A stretch of DNA of 63,845 nt, filler included. It is 4 parts of 4 records of this genome, joined end to end, with 100 filler letters (N's around TTAATTAATTAA, not from the genome) between each part and the next. Parts side by side here need not be neighbours in the genome. Positions count along the whole stretch, not along the records: positions 14,205 to 40,894 come from SRR22947727_1300; 3 more parts are not named here. One strand, 5' to 3'. The translations under genes were made by a program, and so were the position numbers. Every line of letters begins with the position of its first letter. Position 1 is the stretch's first letter. This document shows positions 18,381-35,873 of the stretch, one piece after another. The notes beneath the pieces were generated by a model that saw nothing but the letters and a program-made list of their open reading frames with translations, was not told the origin of the DNA and made no database searches.

Positions 18381-18413
18381 ATATGTTTATCACACAACCT
18401 AATGGAGGTGAGC

Positions 18414-18623: not shown

Positions 18624-18631
18624 ATATTTTT

Positions 18632-18868
18632 ATGAAAGTACAAGAAGTAATAATATCCGAAGCAGGGCCTGCCAGTAAAGCATTGTGTAGAAGCAAAAAA
18701 CCTGATCATGCACTGGGTGCCAGTCAGTTGGCAAGTTGTAAAAGTCAAGGTTACAGAAAACGTTCAGGAAAAAAATCTTACAAGATTGGCAAGAAGAGAG
18801 TTTATGTTTCTGGAAAGAAGATTAAAGGCGAGCCATACGGCGGACCATTACCATTGTATAGTAAATGA
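18632..18868 (+). CDS. Small basic protein, putative internal head protein
   Basis: N-terminus MKVQEVIISE; Lys-rich; TAAATA 5 nt upstream. Confidence 0.6.
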   Translation: MKVQEVIISEAGPASKALCRSKKPDHALGASQLASCKSQGYRKRSGKKSYKIGKKRVYVSGKKIKGEPYGGPLPLYSK

Positions 18869-19419: not shown

Positions 19420-19444
19420 ACTGAGTAGTTAACTAAATACTGAT

Positions 19445-20623
19445 ATGCTTTCAGTTAATCCTTTTCAGGACATCATCAACAATCTCAAAGAGTCTGGAAA
19501 TTACAGAGTTTTCAATGACATTCTTCGTGAGAGAGGTGAATACCCAAATGCTATATGGTATGGCAAATACAATATTAAAAATATTGTGAATTGGTGTTCA
19601 AATGATTACCTAGGTATGGGTCAACATAAGGTGGTTCTAGATGCTATGCATACTGCATTGGATCAAACAGGTGCAGGCTCTGGTGGGACTAGGAACATAG
19701 GTGGAACCAGTCACTACCATGTAGCACTTGAAATTGAATTGGCTAAACTGCACAGCACTGAGTCGGCATTACTTTTCAGTTCTGCCTACGTTGCAAACGA
19801 ATGGAGCCTAATTGCATTAAAACGCATCATTCCTGATATTGTGTTTATTAGTGACAGCAAGAATCATGCTTCATTAATACAAGGTATCAGACATAGTGGT
19901 GCTGAGAAACATATTTTCAAACACAATGATCTCGAGCAATTGGAATCTATACTCAAAACCTGTAAAGGCACACCTTGTATTGTCTTTGAATCTGTGTATA
20001 GCATGGATGGGTTCATGAGTAAAATTACGGAAATCTGTGACCTAGCAGAAAAGTATGGTGCTATCACATATCTTGATGAGGTTCACGCAGTCGGCTTGTA
20101 TGGAAATAAAGGCGGAGGTGTTACTCAGAAATTAGATCTACAAGATCGAATAGATATTCTGAATGGTACACTTGGTAAAGCCTTTGGCACACAGGGAGGT
20201 TACATCGTTGGTAAGTCTGTTGTTTTAGACGCAATACGTTCTGTTGCCTCGGGCTTTATCTTTACAACTTCAATGAGTCCTGTGATTTGTGCAGGAGCAT
20301 TGGCAAGTGTCAAATACGTTTCAGACAACAACGATTTAAGAATAAAACATCAAGAAAGAGCAAACAGACTTAAAGATATTTTTCAACAGAAAAACATTCC
20401 AATGATTGAAAACGAAACTCACATAGTTCCGGTTCATGTTGGAGAGGCTAAGAAGTGTAAAGCAATCAGCGATACACTGATAAATGAATATGGAATATAT
20501 TGTCAAGCAATAAATTATCCAACAGTTGAAGTAGGCACAGAGCGACTACGTTTTGCCCCGACACCGTTCCATACAGATGCAATGATGCATGATTTAAGAG
20601 ACGCTCTAGAAAAGGTACTATAA
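19445..20623 (+). CDS. hemA: 5-aminolevulinate synthase (Shemin/C4 pathway)
   Basis: [45 protein letters not shown] lysine [19 protein letters not shown]. Confidence 0.95.
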
Positions 20624-21042
20624 TGAATAAGATAAAAAAATATTTGTATCAAGCATTGGGATTTCTATGTGTGGGTATTGCCTACATAGGTTTTGTTACT
20701 CCAGGAATACCATTCTCGATATTTTTAGTGGTTGCCGCTTGGGCATTTGCAAAGAGTTCACCTAAGATGGAGGCTTGGTTGTATAACCATCCATGGTTTG
20801 GTAAATTCTTAACCAACTGGACAAAGAAAAGAGTATTTCCTATAAAAGGAAAATACGCAATGATATTAGTAATGAGTTCCACTTTAGCATTTACTTGGTA
20901 TTTCACAGGTAATATGAAAGCAGTATTATGGTCAGGCATATCCATGGCACTAGTGGCTGTTTGGGCATGGCGTTATCCTTCTACTGTAGAAGAACACAAT
21001 GCCAGAGTGAAAGCAGGCAAGAAGATTGGTTGGCTAAAATAA
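20623..21042 (+). CDS. ybaN: YbaN/DUF454 family inner-membrane protein
   Basis: GFVTPGIP...AAWAFAKSSPKMEAWLYNHPWFG. Confidence 0.85.
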   Translation: MNKIKKYLYQALGFLCVGIAYIGFVTPGIPFSIFLVVAAWAFAKSSPKMEAWLYNHPWFGKFLTNWTKKRVFPIKGKYAMILVMSSTLAFTWYFTGNMKAVLWSGISMALVAVWAWRYPSTVEEHNARVKAGKKIGWLK

Positions 21043-21045
21043 TAT

Positions 21046-21624
21046 GTGTTTAAAAGAATAGAAAACGTATTATCAGAAGCAGACTACAATCAATTACACG
21101 ATACATTATCATCGTTCCAATTTGACTGGCACTACTTGCCATCATCTGTGCCACCAGATGTAATAGATGTTGTAAGTAAATCAAACTCATTTAACTTATA
21201 CGAGCCTGGACAATTTGTTCACATGTTCTACGATCAAAAACCGTTGAGTCCTTACTGGAAGTTGGTCGAACCTATTTTGAAATCACTAGATAAACCGGTG
21301 GTAGAGATGGGCAGAATCAAAGCCAATTTATTGATGCAGAATAACAGCGATAATCATGCTGTGAATTGTCCACATGTGGATAGAGATCGAGAAGGTTGGC
21401 ACAGTTTAATATATTATCTTAACGACTCCGATGGTGACACTGTATTGTTTGATAAAAAAGGCAATCAAGGCTGGGATAATTTACAAGTTCAAGACACAGT
21501 AACACCTAAGAAAAATACTGCTGTGCTGTTTGAAAGCGATCAGTATCATGCCGGAACGAATCCTATTGACAACACCAGACGAATTGTGTTAAACTTTATT
21601 TTAAAATTTAAAAATGTTATTTAA
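21046..21624 (+). CDS. 2OG-Fe(II) oxygenase superfamily protein
   Basis: HVD, IYYLNDSDGDT, H...RIVLN. Confidence 0.85.
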   Translation: MFKRIENVLSEADYNQLHDTLSSFQFDWHYLPSSVPPDVIDVVSKSNSFNLYEPGQFVHMFYDQKPLSPYWKLVEPILKSLDKPVVEMGRIKANLLMQNNSDNHAVNCPHVDRDREGWHSLIYYLNDSDGDTVLFDKKGNQGWDNLQVQDTVTPKKNTAVLFESDQYHAGTNPIDNTRRIVLNFILKFKNVI

Positions 21625-21877: not shown

Positions 21878-22284
21878 TCGCAACTGCTGATAACTTTAAG
21901 ATACATGGAATCGTATTCCCAGTTAACACCGTGAACTTCCAATAGATATTTTTTTTGAAGTGGATATATTTCTGCTTCAGATTGAGCTATACAATCAAAC
22001 TTGGTGCCCACAGCATCATTCAAATCGTGTACATAATGCATTAACTCATGCATCAATACACCTTTGTCAAACACATTGAACATATTAAAAGTGTCTTTAA
22101 GATATATGGTGTCTGTGCTAGGATCATACAAAGCATGGATCTCACTGTCTGGTACGACATGACCAAAGTGCATTTGATTTAAACTGCTTTGACTCACCAT
22201 CTTTATTGCCGGATGTGGAATCAGAGTGTTGTAATCTGTTTCTGCACCAATCCACAATAATATAAAAGCAACCAATGTTTTCAT
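21874..22284 (-). CDS. HExxH zincin-like protein (DUF6647-like)
   Basis: ALYD....TIYL, LMHELMHYVH, C....EAEIY; start ATG 22284 with TAAATA 5 nt upstream. Confidence 0.7.
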   Translation of the reverse strand: MKTLVAFILLWIGAETDYNTLIPHPAIKMVSQSSLNQMHFGHVVPDSEIHALYDPSTDTIYLKDTFNMFNVFDKGVLMHELMHYVHDLNDAVGTKFDCIAQSEAEIYPLQKKYLLEVHGVNWEYDSMYLKVISSCD

Positions 22285-22417
22285 GCAAATATTTAAAATA
22301 AACAAGGTGTTTATTTTAGTGTCTTTTAAGTTATGTGAGTAGTTAATCCTTAATAGTATCTGATTATAATAACAGCATACTTTATTAAATATTAGTATAT
22401 TAAAAGAGGGCAACTAC

Positions 22418-25400
22418 ATGGCAATTTTTACAGATCCGTTAGCAATTGGGAAAATTACCACAGCCGAACAACCGTTCACAATTCAACGTGGTAATGAAAC
22501 GATAGAATTAAGCGAAGGTGATTTCATCTATCTAGATGACATGATCAGTGCTGGCGGAACTGCTGTGGGTATTGCTTTCGCAGATGAGACCACAATGTCC
22601 GTTGACCCAAACAGCACCATGGTCATAGATGATTTCGTGTACGATCCCGAGAATCCAACGGTGGGATCTATGAATGCCAATGTACTAGAAGGTAACTTCT
22701 CATTCGTCTCAGGACAGATTGCTAAAACAGGCGCTGACGCAATGAAGGTGACTACACCTGTATTAACAATTGGCGTAAGAGGTACACAGGTAGCGGGTAA
22801 AGCCAACACAGACGGTGAAGAAAATGAAATAGTATTGTTACCGAATGAAGATGGTTCAGTTGGACAAGTGATGATTAAAAACGATTCCGGTGAGGTGTTG
22901 TTGACAGAGGCATACCAAGCAACCATTATCACTGATCCATACACTGTACCAACAGTTCCAGTGATATTGTCAAAAGACGTAGTGCTTAAAAAGTTTGCGA
23001 AAACAATCGCAACAACTAAAAAAACAGAAGCCAAAGCAAAGGTGGAAAGGGATACCGAAGAAGCCACCAAAGAAAAAGCAGAAGCAGAAAAAGAAGGCGA
23101 GGAACTGGAAGAAGAGAAAGAACAACTAGAAGAAGAAAAAGAACAACTGGAAGAGGAAGCCGAGGAACTTGAAGAAAAATCTGAGGAACTGGAAGAGGAG
23201 GCAGAGGAACTTGAAGGAGAAGCCAAAGAGTTGGACGAGAAAGAAGAAAAGGTTTTAGAAGAAAAAGAACAAGCAGAGGAAAAGAAAGAGGAAGTTGCTG
23301 AGGAGATTGAGGAGTTGGCAGAAAAATTGGAAGAAGCACCCATCGAGGAAAGAGAAAAGATCGAACAAGAACTGCAACAGTTGGAAGAAGAATTCATAGA
23401 GATCGAAGAAGAGGTACAACAGATCGAACAAGAAATTGAAGTGGTTGCTCAAGAGAAAGCAGTTGTGGAACAAAAAGTTCAAGAGATAGAAAAAGAATTT
23501 GCCGAAATCAAAGAGGACTTCGCAGACATAGAAGCCAAAGTAGAGTTTGTAGAAAAAGAAGTGCTACAGGTTATCGAAAAGGAACTAGTGATTGAGCAAA
23601 GAGTTCTGGCTGTGGAACAGAGATTCGAGGCCATCGTACAAAACTTTGAAAAATTCCAAGAGGAATTCGTACAAGAGTTTGAAGAATTCATACCAGTGGA
23701 AGAGATGCAACAGTTCAAAGAAGAAGCACCACAGGACATGATGCGTGACGTACAGGAGAACGTCATGAAAGAATTCAATGAAGTGGTGGAAGCACCACAA
23801 GAGATCATGGAGGAGGAACCCAAAGACATCTTCGCTGAGGAGAACGTGGAAGAGCAGATGCAGGAGATGGAAAACAACGAAGAATTCCAGGAATTTGAAA
23901 AGATGATGGAAGAGGAAATGGCACCAGAGGGATTCAATGAGAGCGATGATGTGTTCAAGGTGGATGAGAAAAATCAAGTCGATGATCAAGCAGTGGAACA
24001 GTTCATACAGGAAGAAAAAGAGAAAGCACTGATGGAGGATCCCATAGCACAGGAGATGGACAACTTCTTCCAGGAGATGGATCCCGACAATAAAAAGATC
24101 GACCAACAGGTCAAAGACATGATTGTGATAGAATCCCAGAACATAAATGAATGGTTCGATGGTGCTGGTGCAGGCATCAACAACGCTGATGATTTTTACG
24201 CCCTAGAGGATAACGGTTATTGGGACATGATAGACAACAACGAGGACGCCTACTACGATGCCATAGAGGCAGATGCCATCATGGATCAGTTCATGTACGA
24301 CATGGCGGAGGAGCAGAACATCAACGTGGCCCCATGGTTGCAGATGCCCAACGCAGTCACGGTCAATGAAAATCTGGCAGTGAACGAGACTCTGGAATAC
24401 GTGTATGGATCAGATGCAAACAATGACCAACTGACGTTTTCGATATTTGATGATCCCACTGGCAAGTTGAAAATAGTAGGCAACAGGATAACATTGGACT
24501 CGGCATTCTCAGTGACCGAAGACACTACCTACACCATACTGTTGAAGGTGCAAGATCCATATGGTGCGTCAGACATAGACTCATGGCAGATCACCGTGGA
24601 GAACAACCACTCACCCGAGATATCCAACACCAGTGCTGTGTCACTGGGAGAGGATGACAGTATAGGCACAGCAGTGGCAACCATATCGGCCTCGGACGAA
24701 GAGAGCGAGACAATCACATACGCAATCACGGCGGGCAACACAGGCAACGCATTCACAATCAATTCAAGCACGGGTGCGATCACAACCGCGGCGGCGCTGG
24801 ACTACACGGCCACAGCCAGTTACACACTGACAATAACTGCCACTGACGCATGGGGCAACGCAACCACTACCACACAGACGGTGAACGTCACAGAAGGGGA
24901 AGGTGATGGGATTGCAAGTTCATGGGTCACAGCAGGAGATGGTTCAGCGGGTGCATACAAACAGAAGATCGGATACGTAGGAACGGGAGATGGTGCTGGC
25001 ATAATCACAGCACTGGGACACACTGCGGAGGCCTACGATGCCAACAACCTTGACACCTATGACGTGATAGCATACTACAATTCCTCCAACGGTCAGTTTT
25101 ACCCCAGTCCATTCAGCACGGCACTGACCACTTGGGTCGATGATGGTGGTGTGTTGGTGGTGTATGACAGATGGGTCAATGATGCAGGACTGGACACCAA
25201 CCTGCCGGGACACAATGGCAACGCCACGACAGTTAGAGATTCATCAGGCGATGATGCCGCGGCATATAATATAGTGGATGAAAGCACCTCCAACCTGCTC
25301 AAATACGGACCGGGTGGTATCATGGTGGACGACTCATCTGCGTTTAACGATGATCCAGGAGGAGATCACTCCGGTAACAACCACTTAGGCACTTTCAACA

Positions 25401-25999
25401 TAGGTGGCGGTCACGCAACCAACCACGGATACATGACAAATCTTGACTCGGACGTGTTGGGATTGGCCACACGTGACAATAGTAACGAATACATTGATGC
25501 GGTATGGTCTTACGGATCAGGTGCTGTGTACTACTCCACAACACCAACGGACCACTACATCGGTACCAACTTTGCGGAGAATGACGCTTGGGACGCCTAC
25601 GCACTGAACAGCCTGCACTACGCAACCAGTTTGATATTCGACGGATACAGCCAGATAGATGGCACCAGTTCAGCAGATCAATTGTATGGAACCGCTGGCG
25701 ATGATGTGTTCTGGAGCAAGGACGGCGCAGACGAGATATGGTCAGGCAATGGATCAGACACATTCCTGTACACACAGACCTATCAGACTGATCCCGGATC
25801 AAACGATGTGATACTGGACTTCGACTATCAGAACGACAAGATTGACATCAGTGCCATAACAGGTGGGGCAAGTGTCTCGAGGACATTGACCAACGGCACA
25901 CTGTTCAAACTGGACACGGACAACAACGGCACATACGAGATGCAATGGGATCTGGATGACTACACAGGCACAGCAGACCAGGTGACCGTGATAACATAA
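22418..25999 (+). CDS. T1SS cargo: FecR domain + acidic coiled coil + cadherin repeats + RTX/Ca-binding C-terminus
   Basis: FecR signature (FADETTMSV.PNS.MVIDDFVYDP; VTTPVLTIGVRGT); EELEEEK heptads; cadherin YAITAGN..NAFTINSSTGAITT...LDY; GTAGDD/DGADEIWSGNGSDTF/NDVILDF; no signal peptide. Confidence 0.85.
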   Translation: MAIFTDPLAIGKITTAEQPFTIQRGNETIELSEGDFIYLDDMISAGGTAVGIAFADETTMSVDPNSTMVIDDFVYDPENPTVGSMNANVLEGNFSFVSGQIAKTGADAMKVTTPVLTIGVRGTQVAGKANTDGEENEIVLLPNEDGSVGQVMIKNDSGEVLLTEAYQATIITDPYTVPTVPVILSKDVVLKKFAKTIATTKKTEAKAKVERDTEEATKEKAEAEKEGEELEEEKEQLEEEKEQLEEEAEELEEKSEELEEEAEELEGEAKELDEKEEKVLEEKEQAEEKKEEVAEEIEELAEKLEEAPIEEREKIEQELQQLEEEFIEIEEEVQQIEQEIEVVAQEKAVVEQKVQEIEKEFAEIKEDFADIEAKVEFVEKEVLQVIEKELVIEQRVLAVEQRFEAIVQNFEKFQEEFVQEFEEFIPVEEMQQFKEEAPQDMMRDVQENVMKEFNEVVEAPQEIMEEEPKDIFAEENVEEQMQEMENNEEFQEFEKMMEEEMAPEGFNESDDVFKVDEKNQVDDQAVEQFIQEEKEKALMEDPIAQEMDNFFQEMDPDNKKIDQQVKDMIVIESQNINEWFDGAGAGINNADDFYALEDNGYWDMIDNNEDAYYDAIEADAIMDQFMYDMAEEQNINVAPWLQMPNAVTVNENLAVNETLEYVYGSDANNDQLTFSIFDDPTGKLKIVGNRITLDSAFSVTEDTTYTILLKVQDPYGASDIDSWQITVENNHSPEISNTSAVSLGEDDSIGTAVATISASDEESETITYAITAGNTGNAFTINSSTGAITTAAALDYTATASYTLTITATDAWGNATTTTQTVNVTEGEGDGIASSWVTAGDGSAGAYKQKIGYVGTGDGAGIITALGHTAEAYDANNLDTYDVIAYYNSSNGQFYPSPFSTALTTWVDDGGVLVVYDRWVNDAGLDTNLPGHNGNATTVRDSSGDDAAAYNIVDESTSNLLKYGPGGIMVDDSSAFNDDPGGDHSGNNHLGTFNIGGGHATNHGYMTNLDSDVLGLATRDNSNEYIDAVWSYGSGAVYYSTTPTDHYIGTNFAENDAWDAYALNSLHYATSLIFDGYSQIDGTSSADQLYGTAGDDVFWSKDGADEIWSGNGSDTFLYTQTYQTDPGSNDVILDFDYQNDKIDISAITGGASVSRTLTNGTLFKLDTDNNGTYEMQWDLDDYTGTADQVTVIT
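23099..23230 (+). repeat. About six degenerate 21-nt tandem repeats encoding EELEEEx heptads
   Basis: GA(G/A)(G/C)AACT(G/A/T)GAAGA.. units repeating every 21 nt. Confidence 0.7.
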
Positions 26000-26016
26000 T
26001 AAATACTGGTAATATA

Positions 26017-27753
26017 ATGAAAACTCTAATACATTACACACTGATAGCAATGATGCTCAACTGGAACATAGCCGTCTTTGCGGAAGACAGTGGAGGGTGT
26101 GAATGGGAAGTAGTGGAAGTAACTGAAACTTATATTCAAGAGAAGTGTGGAGACAATCAAGTAAGAATTAAGTCCAAACCTATTGAAGGCATGAACATTG
26201 AGATAGTTGAAGCACCCAAAAATAAAAAAAACAATCCCATAAAAGAATTCAAAGACAAAGTAGAAAAGGCTCCCAAAGTTATTGAGAAAGTTGAAAAACT
26301 TGAGAAGATAGAACAGGAAGTCATAGCCACAGAAGATAAAGTTAAAGAACATATTGAGAAAAAGAAACTGGCAGAAACACCTGTTGCAGAAACAACAAAC
26401 CCCAAAGTTAAAAAAGAAATTGCTAAAAAACAAGTGGACATTAAATCAGATGAAAAACTGGTAAAACAAGCCACAGAAAAAGCATGGTCAGATGTTGACG
26501 CTGATCAAAAAATTACATGGATGCAGTTCCATGAATTGCTACCAAGACTGATCGTTGAGAATGAAAAGATCAAAGCGGCTGAACTAGATTACGAAGCGGC
26601 TGTTGAAGCATTAAAATCAGAATACACAGCATACTATCCTCAGGTTTCTGTATCAATTGGCAACAACTGGGAAGATGATAGAACTCCTGCAAAAGGTACA
26701 TATCCCAACAACACAATCACACACGATTCTAAACAGGGCATACAAAAATCAATCACAGTCACACAGATGATCTGGGACGCAGGCAGAACCACTGCCATGA
26801 TAGACAAAGCCAAAGCAACTGCTCAACAGGCACACTATAGATTGGAACTTACAAAAGAAGATGTTGTAATAGAGGCAATCAATGCTTGGTTAAATTTACA
26901 AAAGGCTTACAACACACACGAAGCGAATAAAAAAATAGAAGCCAATGCTAAAGTTACATTGTCTATGACAATAGAAAAAGTGAAAAAAGGCGAAGGTTCT
27001 AAACTTGAACAATTACAAATTGAACAACAGTACAGAACATATCAAACTCTTTCAATGACAAGTAGATTGGGATTAGACAGTGCTATACAAAGATTTCAAA
27101 ACGTTTGGAGATTCAAACCACACAACATCGCAGGCATGCCAAAACCTTTGGCAGATGCACTTGGTATAATTCCTGTACAAGGAACTCCAGTGTCCAACAA
27201 CACAACACTGCGTATTGCCAGCATGGATGTTACTATTGCTCAAGAACAATTAAATTTTGATAGAGCAGAATTTAAACCAAGAGTGGACGGCAAACTGTCT
27301 TACACAGAGAAGGACGGTGAACTGGCAGGTGGATATGATACAAGTAATTCGCAGAAAGAAGAATGGAGAGCAGACATCACCATGACATGGAAGTTATTCA
27401 ATTTCAAGAACAGACACATGACCAATGCAGACCGTTCTCGTTTGAATGCCGCTAACTTTAGATATTCTAATGTGTTAAGAACCACACAGGAACAGTTCAA
27501 TAACGCATGGAACAACTACGTGTTGGTTGAAAAGAATCTAGCCACTCTGAAGAGAACAGTTGAGATAAATCAAGAAATGTACAAACTCACACTGGCAGAC
27601 TTCCAAGCAGGTAACTCACCCATAATGGCGGTGTTTGGTATGAAGACAGCACACTTAATGAGTGAGGTTGCGTATCTAAACGCACAGATAGATTGGCAGA
27701 TAGCAAGATATCAACTGCACAAGGTGTTAGGTGTTGTAGACCCACTTCTATAA
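26017..27753 (+). CDS. TolC-family outer membrane channel with Lys/Glu-rich N-terminal extension
   Basis: Signal peptide; AYYPQVSV, TQMIWDAGRT, AEFKPRVD, ADITMTWKLFN, YQLHKVLG outer-membrane efflux pattern. Confidence 0.87.
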   Translation: MKTLIHYTLIAMMLNWNIAVFAEDSGGCEWEVVEVTETYIQEKCGDNQVRIKSKPIEGMNIEIVEAPKNKKNNPIKEFKDKVEKAPKVIEKVEKLEKIEQEVIATEDKVKEHIEKKKLAETPVAETTNPKVKKEIAKKQVDIKSDEKLVKQATEKAWSDVDADQKITWMQFHELLPRLIVENEKIKAAELDYEAAVEALKSEYTAYYPQVSVSIGNNWEDDRTPAKGTYPNNTITHDSKQGIQKSITVTQMIWDAGRTTAMIDKAKATAQQAHYRLELTKEDVVIEAINAWLNLQKAYNTHEANKKIEANAKVTLSMTIEKVKKGEGSKLEQLQIEQQYRTYQTLSMTSRLGLDSAIQRFQNVWRFKPHNIAGMPKPLADALGIIPVQGTPVSNNTTLRIASMDVTIAQEQLNFDRAEFKPRVDGKLSYTEKDGELAGGYDTSNSQKEEWRADITMTWKLFNFKNRHMTNADRSRLNAANFRYSNVLRTTQEQFNNAWNNYVLVEKNLATLKRTVEINQEMYKLTLADFQAGNSPIMAVFGMKTAHLMSEVAYLNAQIDWQIARYQLHKVLGVVDPLL

Positions 27754-27783
27754 TATTGTCAAATCAATTAAATACTACTATAT

Positions 27784-28533
27784 ATGACAAGTTTTTTACG
27801 ACAATTATTCCGCGATAAATCAAACGCCATAATGCTATTAACAAGCAGTTTGATCATTGCCATCTGTGCGTTGGCTCCGGCCTTGTTTGTGATTATTGTG
27901 TTGAACAAGTATCTAGCATCTGGAGTTACATCCACCCTGATATCTTTGGGTGTGGGTGCCATACTATTGTTGGCATTTGAATTTGGTTTCAGACAGAACA
28001 GAGCAGGCATGATACAGCAGTTGAACATTAGGATATTCACTCCATTGTTGAATGCATATGCAAAAAAGATTAAAGAAACTCAGATCACAGGAGAACAGTT
28101 TAAAAGATTAGAAGTTGCAGGTGGAACAATTAAGGGTGCAACCGGTTCCAGCATTACTGGTTGGATATTGGATTGGCCATTTGTGTTGGCATTTCTTATT
28201 GTGCTACTCTATATCAATTGGACAGCGGCTTTGATTGCTGGGATATTCATGATCATCATGATGGTGTTAACAGCACAGAGATTGAATCTCAGTCTACAAC
28301 AGGACAGCACAGCAAATTTAGAAATATTTTTAACAGGACTAATGACAGTGGTCATCATGTCAGTGGGTGCGACACAAATTATCGCAGGTTCATTGGACGT
28401 GGGATTATTAATAGGTTCCAACATATTGGCGGCAAGAGCACTGCAAGGTGCTAACAAATATGCCAAAGCAAAGGAGGCAATAGAAAAACGTGACCGAGCA
28501 ACAGCAGAAATCATCAATTTCATCAAACAATAA
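27784..28533 (+). CDS. T1SS ABC transporter transmembrane domain only (no nucleotide-binding domain)
   Basis: ALAPALFVIIVLNKYL, FEFGFRQ.R, LDWPF, GATQIIAGSLDVGLLIGSNILAARAL typical of T1SS ABC membrane domains; no Walker A/B. Confidence 0.8.
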   Translation: MTSFLRQLFRDKSNAIMLLTSSLIIAICALAPALFVIIVLNKYLASGVTSTLISLGVGAILLLAFEFGFRQNRAGMIQQLNIRIFTPLLNAYAKKIKETQITGEQFKRLEVAGGTIKGATGSSITGWILDWPFVLAFLIVLLYINWTAALIAGIFMIIMMVLTAQRLNLSLQQDSTANLEIFLTGLMTVVIMSVGATQIIAGSLDVGLLIGSNILAARALQGANKYAKAKEAIEKRDRATAEIINFIKQ

Positions 28534-29215
28534 ATTCTTTGGCTTGTTGACAAGTCTATTTGTTGTGTTCTTTGTATGGATGTCATTTTCCAAAGTCGAT
28601 ATAACTTCTGTCGCCAACGGACTGGTAATACCTGAAAAAAATATCACAACACTTGGCACAATGGTTACAGGAGAAATTGTGAAAGTGAACCACAAGCAAG
28701 GAGACGTGGTTAAAAAAGGCGACATCATAATCACAATTAATCCTGGAGTAGGATACGAACCTTATCACATACGAGCAAACATAGATGGGAAGATACAACA
28801 ACTTACATTTAAAAATCCAGGCTCTGTGGTAAAACAAGGTGACGCACTGGCAGTGCTGGTACCCCTAGATCAAAAATTAATTGTTCAAGGACAATTGCAA
28901 ATAAAAGACAGAGGCTATGTAGAAGTAGGACAAACAGCAAAAATTAAATTGGCAAGTTCAGAAGCATTCACATACCTTCCAATAGTAGCCAAAATAATTT
29001 CCATATCTCCTGATGCTGTACAAGGACAAGCAATGTCGTTCTATGAAATAGAATTAGAATTAGATTCACAGGCTTTTGCCAACGGAGACTTGCAGTACAA
29101 ACTAGTGCCTGGTGTACAAGTACACGTGTTTATCTTGACTGGAGAACGTACAATATTGAGTTACGTGACAACACCTTTTCACAACAGCATAGGACAGGCC
29201 CTACAAGAGAGATAA
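28490..29215 (+). CDS. Miniature HlyD-family membrane fusion protein
   Basis: TM anchor, lipoyl halves (GDVVKKGD...IRANIDGKI), ISPDA, LVPGVQV..FILTGERTILSY...ALQER C-terminus. Confidence 0.87.
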   Translation: MTEQQQKSSISSNNKFFGLLTSLFVVFFVWMSFSKVDITSVANGLVIPEKNITTLGTMVTGEIVKVNHKQGDVVKKGDIIITINPGVGYEPYHIRANIDGKIQQLTFKNPGSVVKQGDALAVLVPLDQKLIVQGQLQIKDRGYVEVGQTAKIKLASSEAFTYLPIVAKIISISPDAVQGQAMSFYEIELELDSQAFANGDLQYKLVPGVQVHVFILTGERTILSYVTTPFHNSIGQALQER

Positions 29216-29216
29216 C

Positions 29217-29573
29217 ATGGAACAAAAGAAATTAACAATCAGGGAAAGATGGCGTAAGGCCATGACTGCGGACAACATGGTTGATCTCAGTGTTGACATC
29301 TTCCTCATTGTGTTCGACGTGTTGAGCTCTCCCATACTGATCGTCATGAGAATTGTGCGTTGGATATTGGCCAAGTTCGTCAATGACCATGTAAAGAGTT
29401 TTATCAAGAGGATAGTGCATTGGTTCTTGGACAACAGGAAGATCAGACTAGAACGAGGACAGAACATATTCCGTTACTACTGGTACCTGTGGATGTTGAG
29501 TCCTTTTATTGTTTTTGCGTTGTGGATGCTGATAGCAGTCACAATAGGATTAAGACAAGGTGCAGGACTGTAA
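29217..29573 (+). CDS. Small membrane protein within the T1SS-cyclase cassette
   Basis: 118 aa, hydrophobic segments, TAATG coupling to cyclase. Confidence 0.65.
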   Translation: MEQKKLTIRERWRKAMTADNMVDLSVDIFLIVFDVLSSPILIVMRIVRWILAKFVNDHVKSFIKRIVHWFLDNRKIRLERGQNIFRYYWYLWMLSPFIVFALWMLIAVTIGLRQGAGL

Positions 29574-31498
29574 TGAAGATATTCACAAGCATATGGATGG
29601 TGATAGTGTTTGCGATTGTGCTGACAGGAATCAGGATAAACAACAGCGACACAGTAAAAATTATTAGATATAAGACTTGGGACAAATTTCAAACAATTCA
29701 ACCAAGACAGATGGTAAGTGATTCTGTCACTGTTGTAAACATCACAGAACAAGATATTAAGACGTATGGACAATGGCCATGGCCCAGACATGTGATGGCT
29801 ATGCTACACGCAGAGTTGTCTGATGCAGGTGCAATCCTTGTGAACTACAATATAATGTTTGCTGAACCAGACAGAATGAGTGGTGTTGAATATCTAAAAT
29901 CAATGCCTATGACCAATAATTTGCGAGAGCAATTGGGACAAGCATTGTTGGACACAGATGCAATATTCTCCATAGTGTTGAAAGAATCTAAGAAAGCCAT
30001 TTTAATGATGAGTGTTAAAAACACTGCTGACACAAACTTACCCAGCACAACACAGATCATAGAAAAAGGCAACGTGAAGCCATGGTTATACGAGTATGAA
30101 GGCATAGTGTCCCCAAATGCAAAAGTTTCCGTAGGTGCAACAGGCATGGGTGTGAATGTTACTTCACCGGAACCAGATGCTGTTGTGAGAAAGATGCCTG
30201 TGTTAATACGTGTGGGAGATAAGATATATCCCTCTATGCTACTAGAGAATGTTAGACTTTTAAATAAATCAAAAAGAATCAAAGTCATAGCAAAACAACA
30301 CGGCATAGACGAAGTGCTTGTGAGCAAGAAGGCAGGTATACCTGTGAATCATAATGCAGAAATGTATATCAACTATGCAGACCCTTCAATGTATGTTAAT
30401 GTGTCAGCCACAGATATACTGACAGGCAATTACAACGAAAACAAAGTTAAAGGCAGAATTATTGTTATAGGTTTGGATGCCGCAGGATTGAGTGTGTTGA
30501 AATATACACCGCATGGACTTACAACAGATCAAATGATTACTGCCCAATCATTGGATACATTGTTAACAGGCAAATATTTGTTGCGTACACCACAAGCAGA
30601 CACATATGAAATTGCGTTCCTGGCGTTGTTATTATTGCTGTTGATATTAGTACTGCCTAGAACCAGTGTGTTGTTGGCTGTACCTCTTTTATTATTTGTG
30701 GAAGTAGGTGTTGCCTACGGAGCATTCACGGCATACACTAACAAAGGATTTCTTGTAGACCCATCTTGGATAATGTTGTCTGTGTTTTTAATTTGGTCTC
30801 ATTCTGTGTACAACAACTTTGCGACACAGAGCAGATTGAAACAACAGATCAAGAAACAGTTTGAACACTACCTTGATCCTGGCATGGTTAAAAAATTACA
30901 AAAGGATCCCAGCCTACTTAAACTGGGAGGCGAGACAAAGAACATGACTTTCTTGTTCTGTGACATCAGGGGCTTCACACCTATCAGTGAGAAGTACAAA
31001 GGCAATCCAGCAGGACTCACAAAACTTATTAATAGATTCTTGACACGCATGACAGATGTTATAATCTCAAATGGTGGAACAATAGACAAGTTTATGGGTG
31101 ACTGTATTATGGCATTCTGGAACGCACCTATTGAAAATAAAAAACACAGAGAACTAGCAGTTAAAAGTTCTTTGGAAATGACTGTGGCATTGGCAGAATT
31201 GAATATGCATCTACAAGCAGAAGGACTTCCACAGATCAACATAGGAATAGGAATCAACACAGGCGATGCATTGGTGGGTAACATGGGATCGGAACAGAGA
31301 TTTGATTACTCTGTGATTGGCGATGCAGTTAATCTAGCAAGTAGATTAGAGAGCTCATCTAAAACATTAGGCAAAACCATAGTGATAGGTGAGAACACAA
31401 GACACACAATAGAAACAGTTTACCCGTTTGAGTACATTGACAGCATCACAGTCAAAGGTAAGACTGAAAATATAAAAGTTTATACTATTCCTTTATAG
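29573..31498 (+). CDS. CHASE2-domain class III adenylate cyclase
   Basis: CHASE2 GQWPWPR, PEPDAVVRK; TM helices; FCDIRGFT, IDKFMGDCIMAFWNAP, GINTG, RFDYSVIGDAVNLASRLES, VKGK; start ATG 29573. Confidence 0.93.
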   Translation: MKIFTSIWMVIVFAIVLTGIRINNSDTVKIIRYKTWDKFQTIQPRQMVSDSVTVVNITEQDIKTYGQWPWPRHVMAMLHAELSDAGAILVNYNIMFAEPDRMSGVEYLKSMPMTNNLREQLGQALLDTDAIFSIVLKESKKAILMMSVKNTADTNLPSTTQIIEKGNVKPWLYEYEGIVSPNAKVSVGATGMGVNVTSPEPDAVVRKMPVLIRVGDKIYPSMLLENVRLLNKSKRIKVIAKQHGIDEVLVSKKAGIPVNHNAEMYINYADPSMYVNVSATDILTGNYNENKVKGRIIVIGLDAAGLSVLKYTPHGLTTDQMITAQSLDTLLTGKYLLRTPQADTYEIAFLALLLLLLILVLPRTSVLLAVPLLLFVEVGVAYGAFTAYTNKGFLVDPSWIMLSVFLIWSHSVYNNFATQSRLKQQIKKQFEHYLDPGMVKKLQKDPSLLKLGGETKNMTFLFCDIRGFTPISEKYKGNPAGLTKLINRFLTRMTDVIISNGGTIDKFMGDCIMAFWNAPIENKKHRELAVKSSLEMTVALAELNMHLQAEGLPQINIGIGINTGDALVGNMGSEQRFDYSVIGDAVNLASRLESSSKTLGKTIVIGENTRHTIETVYPFEYIDSITVKGKTENIKVYTIPL

Positions 31499-31628
31499 AA
31501 TCTTTATCTATTTCTTTTACAGCAACAACTTCTTTGGGTTCATATGTTTCGTCCCAGCAACAGTCATCTCGGGAAACACACGTGCTCTCTACATATACTT
31601 TTTTGCTCTTCTTTTGATCTTCGTACAT
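31485..31628 (-). CDS. 47-aa Cys-containing peptide
   Basis: AAGGAG RBS before ATG 31628; MYEDQKK...TCVSRDDCCWD. Confidence 0.55.
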   Translation of the reverse strand: MYEDQKKSKKVYVESTCVSRDDCCWDETYEPKEVVAVKEIDKDSIKE

Positions 31629-31640
31629 TGTATTCTCCTT

Positions 31641-31769
31641 TTGTAAAATAATACTTGTAAATTTACTTATAGTAAACTTATAGTAAATTTTGTCGAAAAT
31701 CAATGTCTAAGGTGTAAATTGTGTTGAATGTTTGTAAATTTAAATTTACAAAATTTACAAATAGTAAAT
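31641..31769. repeat. Cluster of GTAAA(T) motifs with an 11-bp tandem repeat and a 22-bp perfect palindrome
   Basis: ACTTATAGTAA x2 (31665-31686); TTTGTAAATTTAAATTTACAAA (31731-31752). Confidence 0.65.
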
Positions 31770-31996
31770 TATTTTTTCTTTTCTCTAGCAGTTTTGACTT
31801 TGGTCTGTAATCTTATCAAATCGTTGTCGAGCAACCTTATCCTATCTATGAGTTTGATTAGTGTTGCTGACGTAGAACTCAACTTGGGTGTGATTTCTGT
31901 TGTAATAAACTTCCACAGGAAGTAAATGAAGTATGCTAGAAAGAATACAGCAACAATAGGAAATCCGTAATCGTTTATGAGTGTAACTATGTCCAT
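31769..31996 (-). CDS. Small single-TM coiled-coil protein (YvrJ/BhlA-like)
   Basis: INDYGFPIVAV + TM + LIDRIRLLDNDLIRL. Confidence 0.7.
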   Translation of the reverse strand: MDIVTLINDYGFPIVAVFFLAYFIYFLWKFITTEITPKLSSTSATLIKLIDRIRLLDNDLIRLQTKVKTAREKKK

Positions 31997-32277
31997 TAGT
32001 CTTTCCTCGCATCTGACTTGCCGTCTGCTCTAGCCACCCTGTCTGTGTCTATTGGCAATCCCAGTTGCTCGGAAACCTCCTGGTCTATTTTGAGTATGTC
32101 GTTGTTCATGGTCTTTACTCTGTTGTCCAGTTGTGAGATCACGCTCTCGATGAACTTGATGGAGTTTACTATGCCATTCAGGATGTATTTTATAATGAAC
32201 AGTATGAACACACCCATTCCCACCGTGGCGGCAATTGGTAATCCTAGCTCTGCTACTAATTGAAAGAACTGTGTCAT
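31996..32277 (-). CDS. Small single-TM coiled-coil protein, paralogue of downstream gene
   Basis: VAELGLPIAA + TM + LDNRVKTMNNDILKI; TATAAATA 8 nt upstream of ATG 32277. Confidence 0.7.
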   Translation of the reverse strand: MTQFFQLVAELGLPIAATVGMGVFILFIIKYILNGIVNSIKFIESVISQLDNRVKTMNNDILKIDQEVSEQLGLPIDTDRVARADGKSDARKD

Positions 32278-32320
32278 TATGTGTGTATTTATAGGCAGTT
32301 GTACACTAGGAATTAAAAGA

Positions 32321-32349
32321 TTGACAACCAAAAATACACCTGCTATACT
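32321..32349 (+). promoter_or_regulatory. Sigma70-type promoter
   Basis: TTGACA-N17-TATACT with extended TG. Confidence 0.65.
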
Positions 32350-32409
32350 GTGACTGCACAGTTTAATATTAGGATTTAATCGGTAAATACTAAAAAGTAG
32401 GCTAGAACT

Positions 32410-32676
32410 ATGAAAAAACATACCAGAAGCATATTAGACGAATTAAGAAACATTGGCAGAATTAACGATGTTGAAGCCTTTATTGAGACCACAGGCTCAA
32501 ATATCATCGAAAGTGCAGTGAATCTGCTCAATACTATAAAAGAAAATTATCCAGAGGACACAGCACAAGAACTGGAGAGAAGATTTTTAAACAGTATTCG
32601 TAACAAAGAAGCCAAAAAGTTTCAAGTTGGTGTGAAGAAGATAATTGAAAGTAAAAAATTAGATGACAATTCTTAA
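32410..32676 (+). CDS. Phage hypothetical protein
   Basis: 88 aa; first gene of a long co-directional block. Confidence 0.7.
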   Translation: MKKHTRSILDELRNIGRINDVEAFIETTGSNIIESAVNLLNTIKENYPEDTAQELERRFLNSIRNKEAKKFQVGVKKIIESKKLDDNS

Positions 32677-33415
32677 AGAAGGCGGCAACATATTCAAAGA
32701 CCCCAACGGAGAACTAGCCACTCAGAGAATTAATCAAGCAGATGTGGCTCCCACACTTGCCTGGTTGGAAAAAATCACAGGATTAGACCTACAAAGTAAT
32801 ATGTTGGGCACAACAGGAAAAGCACCAACATCGGGTGACTTGGATGTTGCAGTGGATCAAAGTAAGATTTCAAAAGACCAGTTGGCAGACACATTAACAC
32901 AATGGGCTATAAAGAACAAACAAGATCCTAAACTGTGGGTAAAGAAGAGTGGCATCAGTGTTCATTTTAAAACTCCTATCAGAGGCAGTGCAAAGAATGG
33001 ATATGTCCAATCAGATTTAATGTTTGGAGATCCAGACTGGATGCGTTGGAGTCTTCAAGGTGGACAACCTGGCTCACCATACAAAGGTGCAGACAGACAC
33101 GTGATGATGGCATCAATTGCCAAACCACTTGGATTCAAATGGAGTCACAAAGCAGGATTATTAAACAGAGACACAAATGAACCTATCACTAAAGATCCTA
33201 ACAAGATTGCTGAACTGTTATTAGGCAAAGGTGCAACTGCAAATGATTTAAACACAGTGGAATCTATTCATGCAAAAATAAAAAATAGATCAGACTATGA
33301 TACGTTGGTTGCTGATGTAAAAGATTCATTTGCTAAAGTGGGTAAGACATTGCCAGAAAGTATTAAAGATCCAATTGGATGGTACAGAGCAATACTAAAC
33401 AAAATTAAAATATGA
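32663..33415 (+). CDS. Putative Pol-beta-superfamily nucleotidyltransferase
   Basis: LGTTGK...SGDLDVAVD (hG[ST]..DxD) and YVQSDLM third acidic residue. Confidence 0.65.
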   Translation: MTILKEGGNIFKDPNGELATQRINQADVAPTLAWLEKITGLDLQSNMLGTTGKAPTSGDLDVAVDQSKISKDQLADTLTQWAIKNKQDPKLWVKKSGISVHFKTPIRGSAKNGYVQSDLMFGDPDWMRWSLQGGQPGSPYKGADRHVMMASIAKPLGFKWSHKAGLLNRDTNEPITKDPNKIAELLLGKGATANDLNTVESIHAKIKNRSDYDTLVADVKDSFAKVGKTLPESIKDPIGWYRAILNKIKI

Positions 33416-34545
33416 GACTAGTAGAATTTAAAGAAGTTGACAAAAAGAATGTCGCTCTCAAAGAATCAAGAATTCAACATGCAGAAGATTTAATTTTCTG
33501 GGAAGGTTCTAGAGGAGCCATAAGAGCAATTGAACAATTACAATCATTAAGCAAAAGCACACAGTCACTCACAATTAAATGGGACGGTTCACCTGCTGTG
33601 GTGTTTGGCAGAAATCCTAATGGAGAATTTATTTTTACAGACAAGTCAGGCTTTGTGGCAAAAGGTTATGACGGTAGAGCAACTAACTCAGCAGACTTAA
33701 AAAGTGCTATTGTGGGAAGAGGAAAAGATCCTACAAAAAAGAAAGCACAGGCACAGTATGCTTCTAAAATGGCATCAGTGTTTGATACTGTGCAACAAGC
33801 AGTGCCTGAAAACGTTCAAGGATATTTTGTTGGAGACATGTTGTATTTTCAAACTCCTAAAAAAGCAGGCGACAAATTTATATTCAAACCCAATGTGGTT
33901 CAGTATGCAGTGGATGTTAACAGCGAGATAGGACAACAGATTGCCAACAGCAGTGTGGGTGTTGTTGTGCACCACAAAATGACTGAAGACGGTAAAGTAT
34001 TACCTATTAATGATTTAGATATGATTCAAGGCAGTGTGTTGGCAATACCACCTACCACACTCAATAAGAAAGATCCAATACAAGTAAAAGGATTGGATCA
34101 ATTAAAATCACTACTCTCCAACAGTGGAGCAGAAATAGACAAATTGTTGAACAAGAACAAGATAGCAGAAATGAAACTGACTGATCTACCCAACATTTTA
34201 TACACCTACACCAACAGCAAAGTGGACACAGGATTAAACAGATTGGGTGAAGATTTTTTGAGATGGTTGGCGGCAAGTGCTGTGAGTCAACCCAAAAGAA
34301 TTAAAATTAAAGAATATGTAACAGCAAACATACAAGCATTCAGCAAACTGTGGATTTTGGTTGGCGGAATAATGAAAGTCAAAGATTCAATCATCAATCA
34401 GTTGGATCAAGCACAAGGCGACATAACAGCAACAATCAACGGCAAACCAGGTGGTGAAGGCTATGTTTTAGGCTCTCCAGAGGGTAATATTAAATTAGTG
34501 AAACGTTCTGGCTTCACGAAAGCCAACAGAGCGATAAATAGATAG
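33412..34545 (+). CDS. Putative ATP-dependent ligase-fold protein (DUF6267-like)
   Basis: KWDG (motif I), FVGDMLY (III), EGYV (IV), IKLV (V). Confidence 0.6.
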   Translation: MRLVEFKEVDKKNVALKESRIQHAEDLIFWEGSRGAIRAIEQLQSLSKSTQSLTIKWDGSPAVVFGRNPNGEFIFTDKSGFVAKGYDGRATNSADLKSAIVGRGKDPTKKKAQAQYASKMASVFDTVQQAVPENVQGYFVGDMLYFQTPKKAGDKFIFKPNVVQYAVDVNSEIGQQIANSSVGVVVHHKMTEDGKVLPINDLDMIQGSVLAIPPTTLNKKDPIQVKGLDQLKSLLSNSGAEIDKLLNKNKIAEMKLTDLPNILYTYTNSKVDTGLNRLGEDFLRWLAASAVSQPKRIKIKEYVTANIQAFSKLWILVGGIMKVKDSIINQLDQAQGDITATINGKPGGEGYVLGSPEGNIKLVKRSGFTKANRAINR

Positions 34546-34555
34546 GGAGAACAAA

Positions 34556-34945
34556 ATGAAAGCAAAAGAATTTATTAGAGAATTTAGAGACATAGATCCA
34601 GCAGATGATCCAAATGCAGGTATGGATCAAGAGTTCAAACAGGATCCTATATTTCATCAATTGGGTAAAATATTAGACAGCAGAGGCAATCCAAATCCGT
34701 TAGACACAGTGATAACAGATGATGGCAAAAAATTTAAAGTAACATTTAAACAAGCCACAGTGTTGAGAAGATTATTAACTGCACCCAGTGTTAAACCTAA
34801 TATTAAAGCACAGTTTACAAAAGATCTTCAACAAAGTCAAACACTTGAAAAGTATTTACAAGCAGATGACATGGTAGAGTTGTTTATTTCTACGTATAAT
34901 CCAGAAAAAACAGAACCTAGTCCATACACCAAATACGAAAACTAA
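34556..34945 (+). CDS. Putative internal head protein
   Basis: MKAKEFIRE N-terminus; GGGAGA RBS; TAAATA at 34535. Confidence 0.65.
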   Translation: MKAKEFIREFRDIDPADDPNAGMDQEFKQDPIFHQLGKILDSRGNPNPLDTVITDDGKKFKVTFKQATVLRRLLTAPSVKPNIKAQFTKDLQQSQTLEKYLQADDMVELFISTYNPEKTEPSPYTKYEN

Positions 34946-34970
34946 GACAGAGGATTTGTCCGTTTCAATT

Positions 34971-35873
34971 ATGACGACAAAACTATCAACACACACTGAC
35001 ACTTCACTGGACTTTCTAAGTTCACTGTTTGAAGCACGTATGACTCGTGACTCACAGGATCATAAAGTTCTTACCTACACAGATTGTGCTGAAAGATTGT
35101 ATATCACACTGTTGATACTGCAACTGTTGAATCAATATCCCACATACAGACAGTTGGCTTCCAAGTATTCCAGAGACACAAAACATTCAAACTACGATAG
35201 ATTCAGAATGTATTCCACAGATCTATACAACTTTGTGTATTTTGTGACAGGTGACGAAGAAGCAATGAACAAATTGAAAGATCCAGACGGTGCCAAAGCA
35301 ATGAGGAAGAAAAGCAGATTCCCCACAATGGCATTCAATAGATATTTGTCAGCATTACAACAGGGATTGATAGCACCCAGTATCATGCAGGTGTTTTTAA
35401 ATATTGAATCAGGACTTAACATACAAAACACAGACTACAAGTCAATCAGAAGAAGTCTATTTCAATTCAGCACACTGTCTACACGTGACAAACAAAATCT
35501 AGTTACAAGACTGCTTCATGCCGCCAGAGCCAAATTGAGAAGTTCAGACAGCATAGAGCATTTGGAAAAATTAGCCTCAGACAGAAATCTTGAAACAGGC
35601 AGAGTGAACGATGCTGAACCAAAAGTGAGTGTGCCAGATGTGAGTACTCAAGGCAAAGACCTTGCACTGTATAGATACATCATGGGTGGCAAAAATCTTG
35701 TGGCAGTGAAACGTTTTATAGATTCAGCACTGTCAGGCAAATCAATACCTTCTGCGATTGTGCAGGCATATCTACCAGCAATTCAACTGATAGATGATAT
35801 TGTGAAAGCCGGACCAGCATACGTGAGTGTGCTAAAAGCACTGCAATCTAGAGCCAAAAAGAGCCGTAAATAA
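34971..35873 (+). CDS. Phage hypothetical protein
   Basis: About 300-aa ORF in late block; GAGGA upstream. Confidence 0.75.
   Translation: MTTKLSTHTDTSLDFLSSLFEARMTRDSQDHKVLTYTDCAERLYITLLILQLLNQYPTYRQLASKYSRDTKHSNYDRFRMYSTDLYNFVYFVTGDEEAMNKLKDPDGAKAMRKKSRFPTMAFNRYLSALQQGLIAPSIMQVFLNIESGLNIQNTDYKSIRRSLFQFSTLSTRDKQNLVTRLLHAARAKLRSSDSIEHLEKLASDRNLETGRVNDAEPKVSVPDVSTQGKDLALYRYIMGGKNLVAVKRFIDSALSGKSIPSAIVQAYLPAIQLIDDIVKAGPAYVSVLKALQSRAKKSRK

Follow-up and report, generated by a model that had tools for sequence, protein, structure and literature searches.

We have analysed a stretch of 63,845 nucleotides of draft-assembly DNA (the window), in which a gene at positions 27784-28533 encodes a protein of 249 residues that we call mini-ABC. 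Mini-ABC is a phage-encoded derivative of the PrtD/LapB-type ATP-binding cassette (ABC) exporters of type I secretion systems (T1SS), without the ATPase and without the hairpin that carries coupling helix 2. Its contig is, by composition and by its matches to viral records, DNA of an uncultivated marine jumbo phage. Judging by gene order over many loci, mini-ABC is co-inherited with a reduced HlyD-type adaptor (mini-HlyD), to which it appears translationally coupled, and with a TolC-like channel, a giant RTX protein and a nucleotide cyclase. The features on which this account depends are the following.

14205-40894: jumbo-phage contig (delimited by GC content, the match to IMG/VR record G002 and the linkers; phage nature taken from related record G045)
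27784-28533, + strand: mini-ABC, six-helix membrane domain of a type IV ABC exporter, 249 aa, ATG start, with no nucleotide-binding domain (NBD) and no intracellular loop 2 (ICL2)
28273-28323, + strand: short cytoplasmic connection between transmembrane helices 4 and 5 (TM4 and TM5), AQRLNLSLQQDSTANLE, residues 164-180, which stands in for ~57 residues

A T1SS membrane domain without ATPase or ICL2

The T1SS ABC permease/ATPase models cover mini-ABC over their membrane part only. TIGR03375 (LssB) aligns residues 4-163 with profile positions 140-304 of 696 (E 1.9e-14) and TIGR01842 (PrtD) matches with an E-value of 2.7e-7; the scores, 52.9 bits for a cut-off of 693.1 and 29.5 bits for a cut-off of 510, are too low for membership in either family. 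The Pfam accession ABC_membrane (PF00664) reaches 17 bits, under its 28-bit cut-off, and was found at E <= 0.01 in only 6 of 16 mini members. It was the sole Pfam entry at that level, so that mini-ABC does not belong to SbmA_BacA or ABC_membrane_2, and no curated family in Pfam or NCBIfam captures it above cut-off. Profile searches of both collections gave no match to the ATPase domain PF00005. Mini-ABC is matched by phrog_2392, labelled 'ABC transporter', with an E-value of 2.6e-13, and phmmer against PDB sequences returned nothing beyond a marginal match to MsbA (E 0.13).

The nearest longer proteins are exporters of 564-572 aa that carry both PF00664 and PF00005 and share 28-35% identity over 89-100% of mini-ABC. 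In alignments with full-length relatives (A1, A2 and one further alignment of 40 rows), mini-ABC ends just past the cytoplasmic extension of TM6 and the ~250-320 C-terminal residues of the relatives are absent. The initial annotation had described a T1SS-type membrane domain that ends where the NBD linker begins, and profile matches, alignments and model agree with that description. A single gap of ~57 columns separates TM4 from TM5 and is found in all 8-9 mini members compared with 32-38 full-length relatives; the TM2-TM3 hairpin is 5-8 residues shorter than in the latter. The segment AQRLNLSLQQDSTANLE had been singled out as an unusually short loop, and it does have ~57 residues fewer than its full-length counterparts. 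What is missing there are the TM4 and TM5 extensions and coupling helix 2, that is, the ICL2 hairpin, and ICL2 is the main NBD-coupling element of type IV exporters. The further claim that the coupling loop had been lost is right for ICL2 and coupling helix 2 but not for ICL1, whose hairpin is the site of coupling helix 1 and is kept. Mini-ABC cannot itself bind or hydrolyse ATP. It is without the main NBD-coupling element, and it keeps the membrane core and the motifs that it shares with transporting relatives.

The AlphaFold2 model of mini-ABC (pLDDT 84.1, pTM 0.75) is a six-helix exporter domain with helices at residues 2-10, 12-43, 49-98, 103-120, 124-144, 146-164, 173-200 and 206-248. TM4 (146-164) and TM5 (173-200) are connected by a join of ~8 residues. 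Cytoplasmic extensions of ~20-28 residues are kept on TM2, TM3 and TM6; helices 49-98 and 103-144 of the model form the retained TM2-ICL1-TM3 hairpin, and residues 206-248 include the extension of TM6. The top Foldseek matches were HlyB, PCAT1, PrtD and TmrAB. VIA-align superposed the model on PCAT1 (8vox_A) with Z 20.0, on HlyB (7sgr_B) with Z 18.6 (rmsd 3.4, 248 residues aligned over chain 141-450) and on PrtD (5l22_B) with Z 17.8 (241 residues aligned over chain 13-314). The structural alignment proposed at the outset thus places the entire model (1-249) on the exporter membrane domains, with ~60 chain residues skipped in each exporter. As far as a predicted model can, this confirms mini-ABC as a six-helix type IV exporter transmembrane domain. 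A complex prediction with two copies of mini-ABC and one of mini-HlyD scored 0.26, where 0.34 is the mark for any answer.

Conservation and selection

A word-indexed search returned 843 homologues of mini-ABC; the best 120 of the 843 are all 249-250 aa long, 89-100% identical and from marine sources. An exhaustive search of 1.84 billion representatives gave 325 matches at E <= 0.001, seven of which are mini-length clusters (247-257 aa, clustered at 50% identity) that span the entire query at 61, 47, 40, 39, 38, 36 and 30% identity. The full-length matches are split into two stretches, residues 1 to ~165 and ~170-248. Both deletions, of the NBD and between TM4 and TM5, are common to all seven clusters, and across lineages the mini form remains between 247 and 260 aa at identities down to 27-30%. 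The deletion is therefore conserved in homologues, a point on which the initial annotation had made its proposal depend.

Among eight copies of the gene, dN/dS (omega) is 0.033-0.217 in 26 of 28 pairs with computable dS, and none of the eight has an internal stop or a frameshift. That both deletions recur in all mini-length relatives down to 30% identity, under an omega of 0.03-0.22, sustains the earlier argument against a simple split gene. TM1, TM2, TM3 and TM6 are best conserved among the minis, with pairwise identities of 0.41-0.53 against 0.36 overall. The most conserved residues (E66, R70, R73, D130, P132, the TM5-TM6 turn and the TM6 motif) are likewise conserved in the transporting full-length relatives. 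A region-wise comparison of conservation in minis and full-length relatives, aimed at relaxed selection on ICL1, gave a normalised ratio of 0.76-0.85 at the ICL1 tip and the TM3 extension, which are poorly conserved in both groups. By its length, its sequence and its omega the mini form is conserved beyond chance and under purifying selection, and is no wreck.

In a quick maximum-likelihood tree of nine minis, 39 full-length membrane domains and one outgroup, eight of the nine minis form one clade (SH-aLRT 98). The ninth lies on a long branch, and a grouping of all nine is not rejected (p-AU 0.92). A single origin of the deletions is therefore compatible with the data but not proven by such a tree. 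RNA libraries of three studies contain short contigs of at least 90% identity over parts of the TolC, mini-ABC and mini-HlyD genes, for example a 282-nt piece over 28392-28673; such libraries may contain DNA and these fragments are weak evidence of expression. The nearest clusters in the ESM Atlas (249-252 aa, 51-55 members) are labelled 'Viruses 100%'.

The module around mini-ABC

The other genes of the module are these.

22418-25999, + strand: giant protein, presumptive substrate, 1193 aa, with FecR, glutamate/lysine-rich (E/K-rich), cadherin-like and RTX (repeats-in-toxin) regions
26017-27753, + strand: TolC-like outer-membrane factor, 578 aa (PF02321 5.8e-50, TIGR01844 4.2e-31)
28490-29215, + strand: mini-HlyD, 241 aa, GTG start, with TM helix, lipoyl and beta-barrel domains
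29217-29573, + strand: small membrane protein of 118 aa, optional in the module and without a family; one base is shared by its TAA and the cyclase ATG
29573-31498, + strand: CHASE2 sensor fused to a class III adenylate/guanylate cyclase (PF05226 2.4e-38, PF00211 5.9e-22)

The start of mini-HlyD overlaps the 3' end of the mini-ABC gene by 44 nt, and this overlap is kept in 10 of 10 loci. Mini-HlyD matches TIGR01843 (1.4e-47) and PF13437 (2.2e-16). The former is matched at positions 10-75 and 272-422 only, with the intervening alpha-helical hairpin (76-271) unmatched; a PGVGYE loop occupies the hairpin position in 15 of 16 aligned members. The cytoplasmic N-terminus is reduced to 6-15 aa. The N-terminal TM anchor and the lipoyl and beta-barrel domains of an HlyD-type adaptor are thus all present, and the long hairpin is not. 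The lineage represented by locus L066 keeps a hairpin of ~69 residues, and its HlyD appears to be an intermediate form. The mini-HlyD model (pLDDT 82.4) is all-beta past the TM helix. Its best PDB match is BesA (4kku, E 1.3e-11, 24% identity), and it also matches MexA, MacA and EmrA. On these alignments, the losses in the adaptor and in the ABC protein may be regarded as one co-ordinated reduction.

The giant protein has Pfam matches to FecR (44-139), Cadherin (741-825) and HemolysinCabind (1081-1115), a serralysin C-terminal region (3.7e-14) and a long E/K-rich charged region between the FecR and cadherin-like domains; inspection by eye found no N-terminal signal peptide. RTX proteins with a serralysin-type C-terminus are the kind of substrate taken by PrtD-type exporters. 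The C-terminal half of the giant gene (24001-26000) has a GC content of ~0.50, compared with 0.37-0.40 around it, and is the part of the module least conserved between relatives (44-88% identity).

In the TolC-like protein, PF02321 and TIGR01844 match residues 182-575, so that the OEP part (from ~180) is preceded by a charged N-terminal extension of ~170 aa. This extension (26017-26560 in the window, 2708-3500 in L066) differs between lineages, with 150-280 residues made up of a small Cys-containing part and charged low-complexity repeats; the whole protein is 578 aa here and 681 aa in L066. The extension might compensate for the absent adaptor hairpin. The 118-aa protein has no Pfam match and occurs in some loci only. 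The longest open reading frame (ORF) of the cyclase begins at 29420; relatives match from residue 41-53 onward, and the likely start is the ATG at 29573.

Gene order was compared in three sets of loci, and mini-HlyD follows mini-ABC in 13 of 13, 15 of 15 and 28 of 28 loci with downstream DNA. In the second set 16 of 17 new loci were analysed (L068, with the last 54 residues only, was omitted, and L043 ends at the gene). The third comprised 35 loci, 32 with the mini form, four of which end at the gene; the matches at L104-L106 are longer and extend over the TM4-TM5 region, and only L106 is confirmed as a full-length ABC protein. Some contigs are present in two collections, so the locus counts include duplicates. 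In the ~60 related loci the TolC gene lies upstream and the CHASE2 cyclase downstream of mini-ABC wherever the contig reaches. The HlyD-type adaptor, the TolC-type channel and the RTX substrate expected in the neighbourhood of a T1SS ABC gene are thus present in the window and in these loci.

Cellular counterparts

L106 is a cellular locus (GC 0.47), in which a FecR-RTX giant of 1428 aa is encoded together with a 449-aa HlyD, a 464-aa TolC and a 542-aa ABC protein with PF00005, flanked by hydantoinase, bactofilin and SDR genes. The N-terminal FecR region of this giant is 40% identical to that of the phage giant over residues 9-185. No cyclase was found at L106 within the DNA seen. With this full-length set at hand, the phage module looks like a reduced cellular T1SS for a FecR-RTX protein. 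L106 suggests that RTX giants with a FecR head make up one class of the cargo of T1SS in marine bacteria.

The bacterial genome G003 has a cellular T1SS supercluster (locus L019, contig C17, 320-340 kb). Its order is an ABC protein of 532 aa, HlyD of 424 aa, TolC of 445 aa, a 294-aa protein, a C39-ABC protein of 719 aa, a 575-aa HlyD with an N-terminal cNMP-binding domain, a CHASE2 cyclase of 796 aa, a cNMP-binding protein and DUF1538. Type I secretion is apparently wired to cyclic nucleotides at this locus. A recent capture of the phage module from the G003 lineage was considered, in view of the shared order of TolC, ABC, HlyD and CHASE2 cyclase, and rejected; the phage proteins and the G003 set are only 19% (TolC), 30% (HlyD) and 34% (cyclase) identical. 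Among 42 genomes of one order, 28 besides G003 have ABC matches, mostly in frames of ~530 aa and ~730 aa, with a few short or cut exceptions. The mini form occurs in only one of the 42, on two short contigs of the metagenome-assembled genome of Rickettsiales bacterium isolate MED657; both carry the module found in the window, and they are probably binned phage contigs.

The phage carrier and the search for a partner ATPase

The window consists of separate draft-assembly contigs, between which lie linkers of the form N44-TTAATTAATTAA-N44 at 14105-14204, 40895-40994 and 58522-58621. The 26.7-kb contig with mini-ABC has a GC content of ~0.37, against ~0.51 in the remaining window, which is made up of bacterial contigs; because the window is joined in this way, the proximity of ExbB/ExbD (12795-14052) is meaningless. 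By BLAST, 14205-40154 matches the 43-kb record G002 at 89-99%. The related record G045 (148 kb) has 173 of its 201 ORFs on one strand and encodes a T4-type DNA polymerase, clamp loader, ribonucleotide reductase, ligase, and baseplate and tail-fibre proteins. Its polymerase is nearest to those of jumbo phages of 345-470 kb (Sinorhizobium phage Phosso 49.7%, Vibrio phage 2.275.O 46%, Escherichia phage 121Q 44% identity). CheckV completeness is 12% for the 43-kb and 41% for the 148-kb record, from which simple arithmetic gives an estimated genome of roughly 360 kb. Among the GenBank phages searched, tblastn found no homologue of mini-ABC, and megablast no match to 22000-32000.

A partner ATPase encoded elsewhere in the phage was sought in the related records. 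PF00005 was not found over cut-off in G002, G045-G049 or G051-G054, and neither the module nor the 11 phage records searched (19-172 kb, each 3-47% complete by CheckV) gave an exporter-type NBD. If collinear, the sampled records reach upstream of the module by an estimated ~63 kb and downstream of it by ~125 kb, about half of the ~360-kb genome. No gene-fission partner adjoins mini-ABC in any of the ~60 loci. A search for a stand-alone NBD, named at the outset as a check, is thus answered for the 11 records; these are partial and hold about half of the genome. One stand-alone NBD in G050 was considered as the exporter ATPase and discarded: it is SufC (TIGR01978, 3.8e-103), beside SufB. This part of G050 (locus L069, 6.6-10 kb) carries SufB-like, SufC and glyoxalase-like genes and the start of an ORF like a TonB-dependent receptor.

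Possible roles of mini-ABC

The initial annotation had proposed an ATP-independent pore or scaffold, or a modulator of a host T1SS. It is supported in part: its argument against a simple split gene holds, and the proposed roles are hypothetical. The reading that we place first, although we give it slightly less than an even chance, is that mini-ABC is the inner-membrane subunit of a stripped-down, phage-built, T1SS-derived envelope module without an ATPase of its own. Mini-ABC, probably dimeric, would be the inner-membrane channel or scaffold of a module built by the phage into the envelope of its host. Its partners would be the hairpin-less HlyD, to which it is translationally coupled, and the phage TolC with its N-terminal extension, and its putative cargo would be the FecR-cadherin-RTX giant, either exported or anchored at the surface, with the whole genetically tied to the CHASE2 cyclase. 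Energy might come from the proton-motive force, from calcium-driven folding of the RTX region outside the cell, or from host components. Truncated LmrA without its NBD is said to transport still. A precedent without ATPase is SbmA, a transporter that according to PMC13316013 is driven by protons and resembles the membrane domains of ABC proteins in structure; it belongs with BacA to the SbmA-like peptide transporters (SLiPT), which like mini-ABC have an ABC-exporter-like membrane domain and no NBD. Mini-ABC has no sequence match to these proteins, however, and SbmA is an importer that stands outside any tripartite envelope system; proton coupling in mini-ABC is pure conjecture.

Several points weigh against this reading. 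Transport, assembly and binding of the module are predictions only. The elements by which a T1SS recruits its substrate (the NBD, the C39-like domain and the cytoplasmic domain of the membrane fusion protein, MFP) are all missing, and the entry of the giant is left unexplained. An adaptor without its hairpin cannot open TolC by the canonical tip-to-tip contact. The retained ICL1 hairpin and TM6 extension leave room for a cytoplasmic partner. An NBD might also be encoded by the host, or by phage DNA beyond the ~190 kb around the module that the sampled records, at most 47% complete, would cover if collinear. A transporter split in this way, in which a stand-alone NBD from phage or host would dock on the ICL1 hairpin and power mini-ABC, could draw on these same retained parts and on a genome searched in part (3-47% per record). 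We nevertheless consider it very improbable: ICL2 is deleted in every member, SufC is the only NBD over cut-off in the 11 phage records, and in none of the ~60 loci is there a fission partner next to the gene. Still further down we place decay, in which mini-ABC would be a functionless remnant of a captured host T1SS gene. Scores under the Pfam and NCBIfam cut-offs and the shortening of both inner-membrane genes could be read in that way. Selection and conservation contradict it, with a length of 247-260 aa kept down to 27-30% identity, omega of 0.03-0.22, a stop or frameshift in 0 of 8 genes compared, a conserved overlapping start of mini-HlyD and, weakly given possible DNA carry-over, fragments in the RNA libraries of three studies; we rejected decay as an explanation, and it retains almost no credence.

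Somewhat unlikely, but the first of the alternatives to consider, is a dependence on the host's own machinery. Mini-ABC and mini-HlyD would insert into, or compete with, a host full-length T1SS ABC/MFP pair, so that an ATPase-driven host machine is redirected to the phage TolC and RTX protein, or host secretion is blocked by a dominant-negative subunit. The membrane parts that form the dimer are kept and are the best conserved (TM1, TM2, TM3 and TM6; 0.41-0.53 against 0.36), no energy source is encoded in the module, and full-length relatives are at hand in marine bacteria, in 28 of 42 genomes besides G003, itself with a complete T1SS and a CHASE2 cyclase. However, the phage supplies a whole parallel set (TolC, ABC part, MFP part and substrate) where a single poison subunit would be enough for blocking, a heterodimer with one NBD cannot make the ATP sandwich of the ABC mechanism, and the phage proteins are distant from the G003 set (19%, 30% and 34%, as above).

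Mini-ABC might also have been exapted as a signalling scaffold, a fairly improbable proposal in which a non-conducting membrane domain anchors or organises a trans-envelope complex with the CHASE2 cyclase as its output, and CHASE2 would have the giant's FecR domain as its partner in the periplasm. The cyclase belongs to the module at every locus with room for it, and the cellular T1SS cluster of G003 likewise has a CHASE2 cyclase, together with cNMP-binding domains of which one is part of an HlyD protein. In Burkholderia and relatives, an operon in which FecR-domain periplasmic proteins adjoin CHASE2 sensor kinases is described in PMC5192318. On the other side, the minis conserve the same TM2, TM3 and TM6 positions as transporting relatives, which together with the TM5-TM6 turn is what a conduit still in use would lead one to expect; in the DNA seen of L106, the cellular FecR-RTX locus, there is no cyclase; and the giant must still cross the inner membrane for its FecR domain to reach the periplasm. 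Channel and signal could be united in an ATP-independent, phage-built, trans-envelope 'threaded sensor', which we hold to be improbable. The giant would pass C-terminus first through mini-ABC, mini-HlyD and TolC, pulled by the proton-motive force or by calcium-driven RTX folding in seawater, until its N-terminal FecR domain plugs the channel and talks to the periplasmic CHASE2 domain of the cyclase. If this were true, the infected cell would gain a phage-made surface receptor that reports to cAMP/cGMP, and the losses of the ATPase, of ICL2 and of the adaptor hairpin and tail would be one co-ordinated redesign of type I secretion.

Relation to known systems

The PrtD/LapB/HlyB exporters (TIGR01842, TIGR03375, TIGR01846; 5l22, 7sgr) share with mini-ABC the six-helix membrane domain (Z 17.8-18.6) and the TM1, TM2, TM3 and TM6 motifs (28-35% identity), and their operons, like the phage module, include an HlyD-type adaptor, a TolC-type channel and an RTX protein. 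Mini-ABC differs from them in having no NBD, no cytoplasmic extensions of TM4 and TM5 and no coupling helix 2, in its length (249 aa against 540-720), in scores far under the family cut-offs and in being phage-encoded. The cellular FecR-RTX systems (L106, and the 542-aa ABC cluster P0174-P0176) resemble the phage module in having a FecR-RTX giant beside HlyD, TolC and ABC genes; they differ in the full 542-aa ABC protein, the 449-aa HlyD, the 464-aa TolC, the cellular neighbours and a GC content of 0.47. Mini-HlyD is structurally most like the adaptor BesA of Borrelia burgdorferi (4kks/4kkt/4kku; E 1.3e-11, 24% identity), which has no alpha-helical hairpin and serves a pump of the resistance-nodulation-division (RND) type. 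In contrast to BesA, mini-HlyD belongs to the HlyD lineage of T1SS (TIGR01843, 1.4e-47) and has an N-terminal TM helix as its anchor.

Textbooks describe type I secretion as a machine of three parts that runs on ATP. The module is a derivative of it in an unexpected carrier, virus-borne, widespread in marine data and strongly selected. If it exports or anchors its cargo, it would show that the membrane domain of an ABC exporter needs no motor of its own to function within a tripartite system. The module would then be a natural minimal system for the contribution of the membrane domain itself, and a case of a jumbo phage re-plumbing the envelope of its host, perhaps together with host cyclic-nucleotide signalling. 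A full-text literature search found no description of phage T1SS-like modules or of T1SS ABC proteins without an NBD, and term look-up in two jumbo-phage papers (PMC9123017 and PMC12619734) found no mention of them.

Other genes of the contig

The contig begins within a gene for a phage-encoded GroEL (14157-14729, - strand; phrog_5725, 1.1e-63), which is cut by the contig start. It is followed at 17883-21624 by genes for a SpeD-like AdoMet decarboxylase, an AlgH-like protein, an aminotransferase, DUF454 and a 2OG-Fe(II) oxygenase. All of these look like auxiliary genes of the phage. At the extreme other end of this low-GC contig, 40182-40894 carries a fragment of a RimK-like ATP-grasp gene with a GC content of 0.53. 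It begins 28 bases past the end of the G002 match, is absent from G001, G002 and G045, and may be either a chimera of the assembly or a cassette that the phage acquired recently.

The - strand at 31769-32421 encodes two small coiled-coil proteins with one TM helix each, phrog_18771 and a paralogue-like ORF of 75 aa. In many loci (among L005-L017 and L043-L103) this pair lies after the cyclase and in its orientation; the window and some other loci have it reversed, with a block (32410-35873, including DUF6267) behind it. The inverted pair represents either an invertible segment or two genome arrangements.

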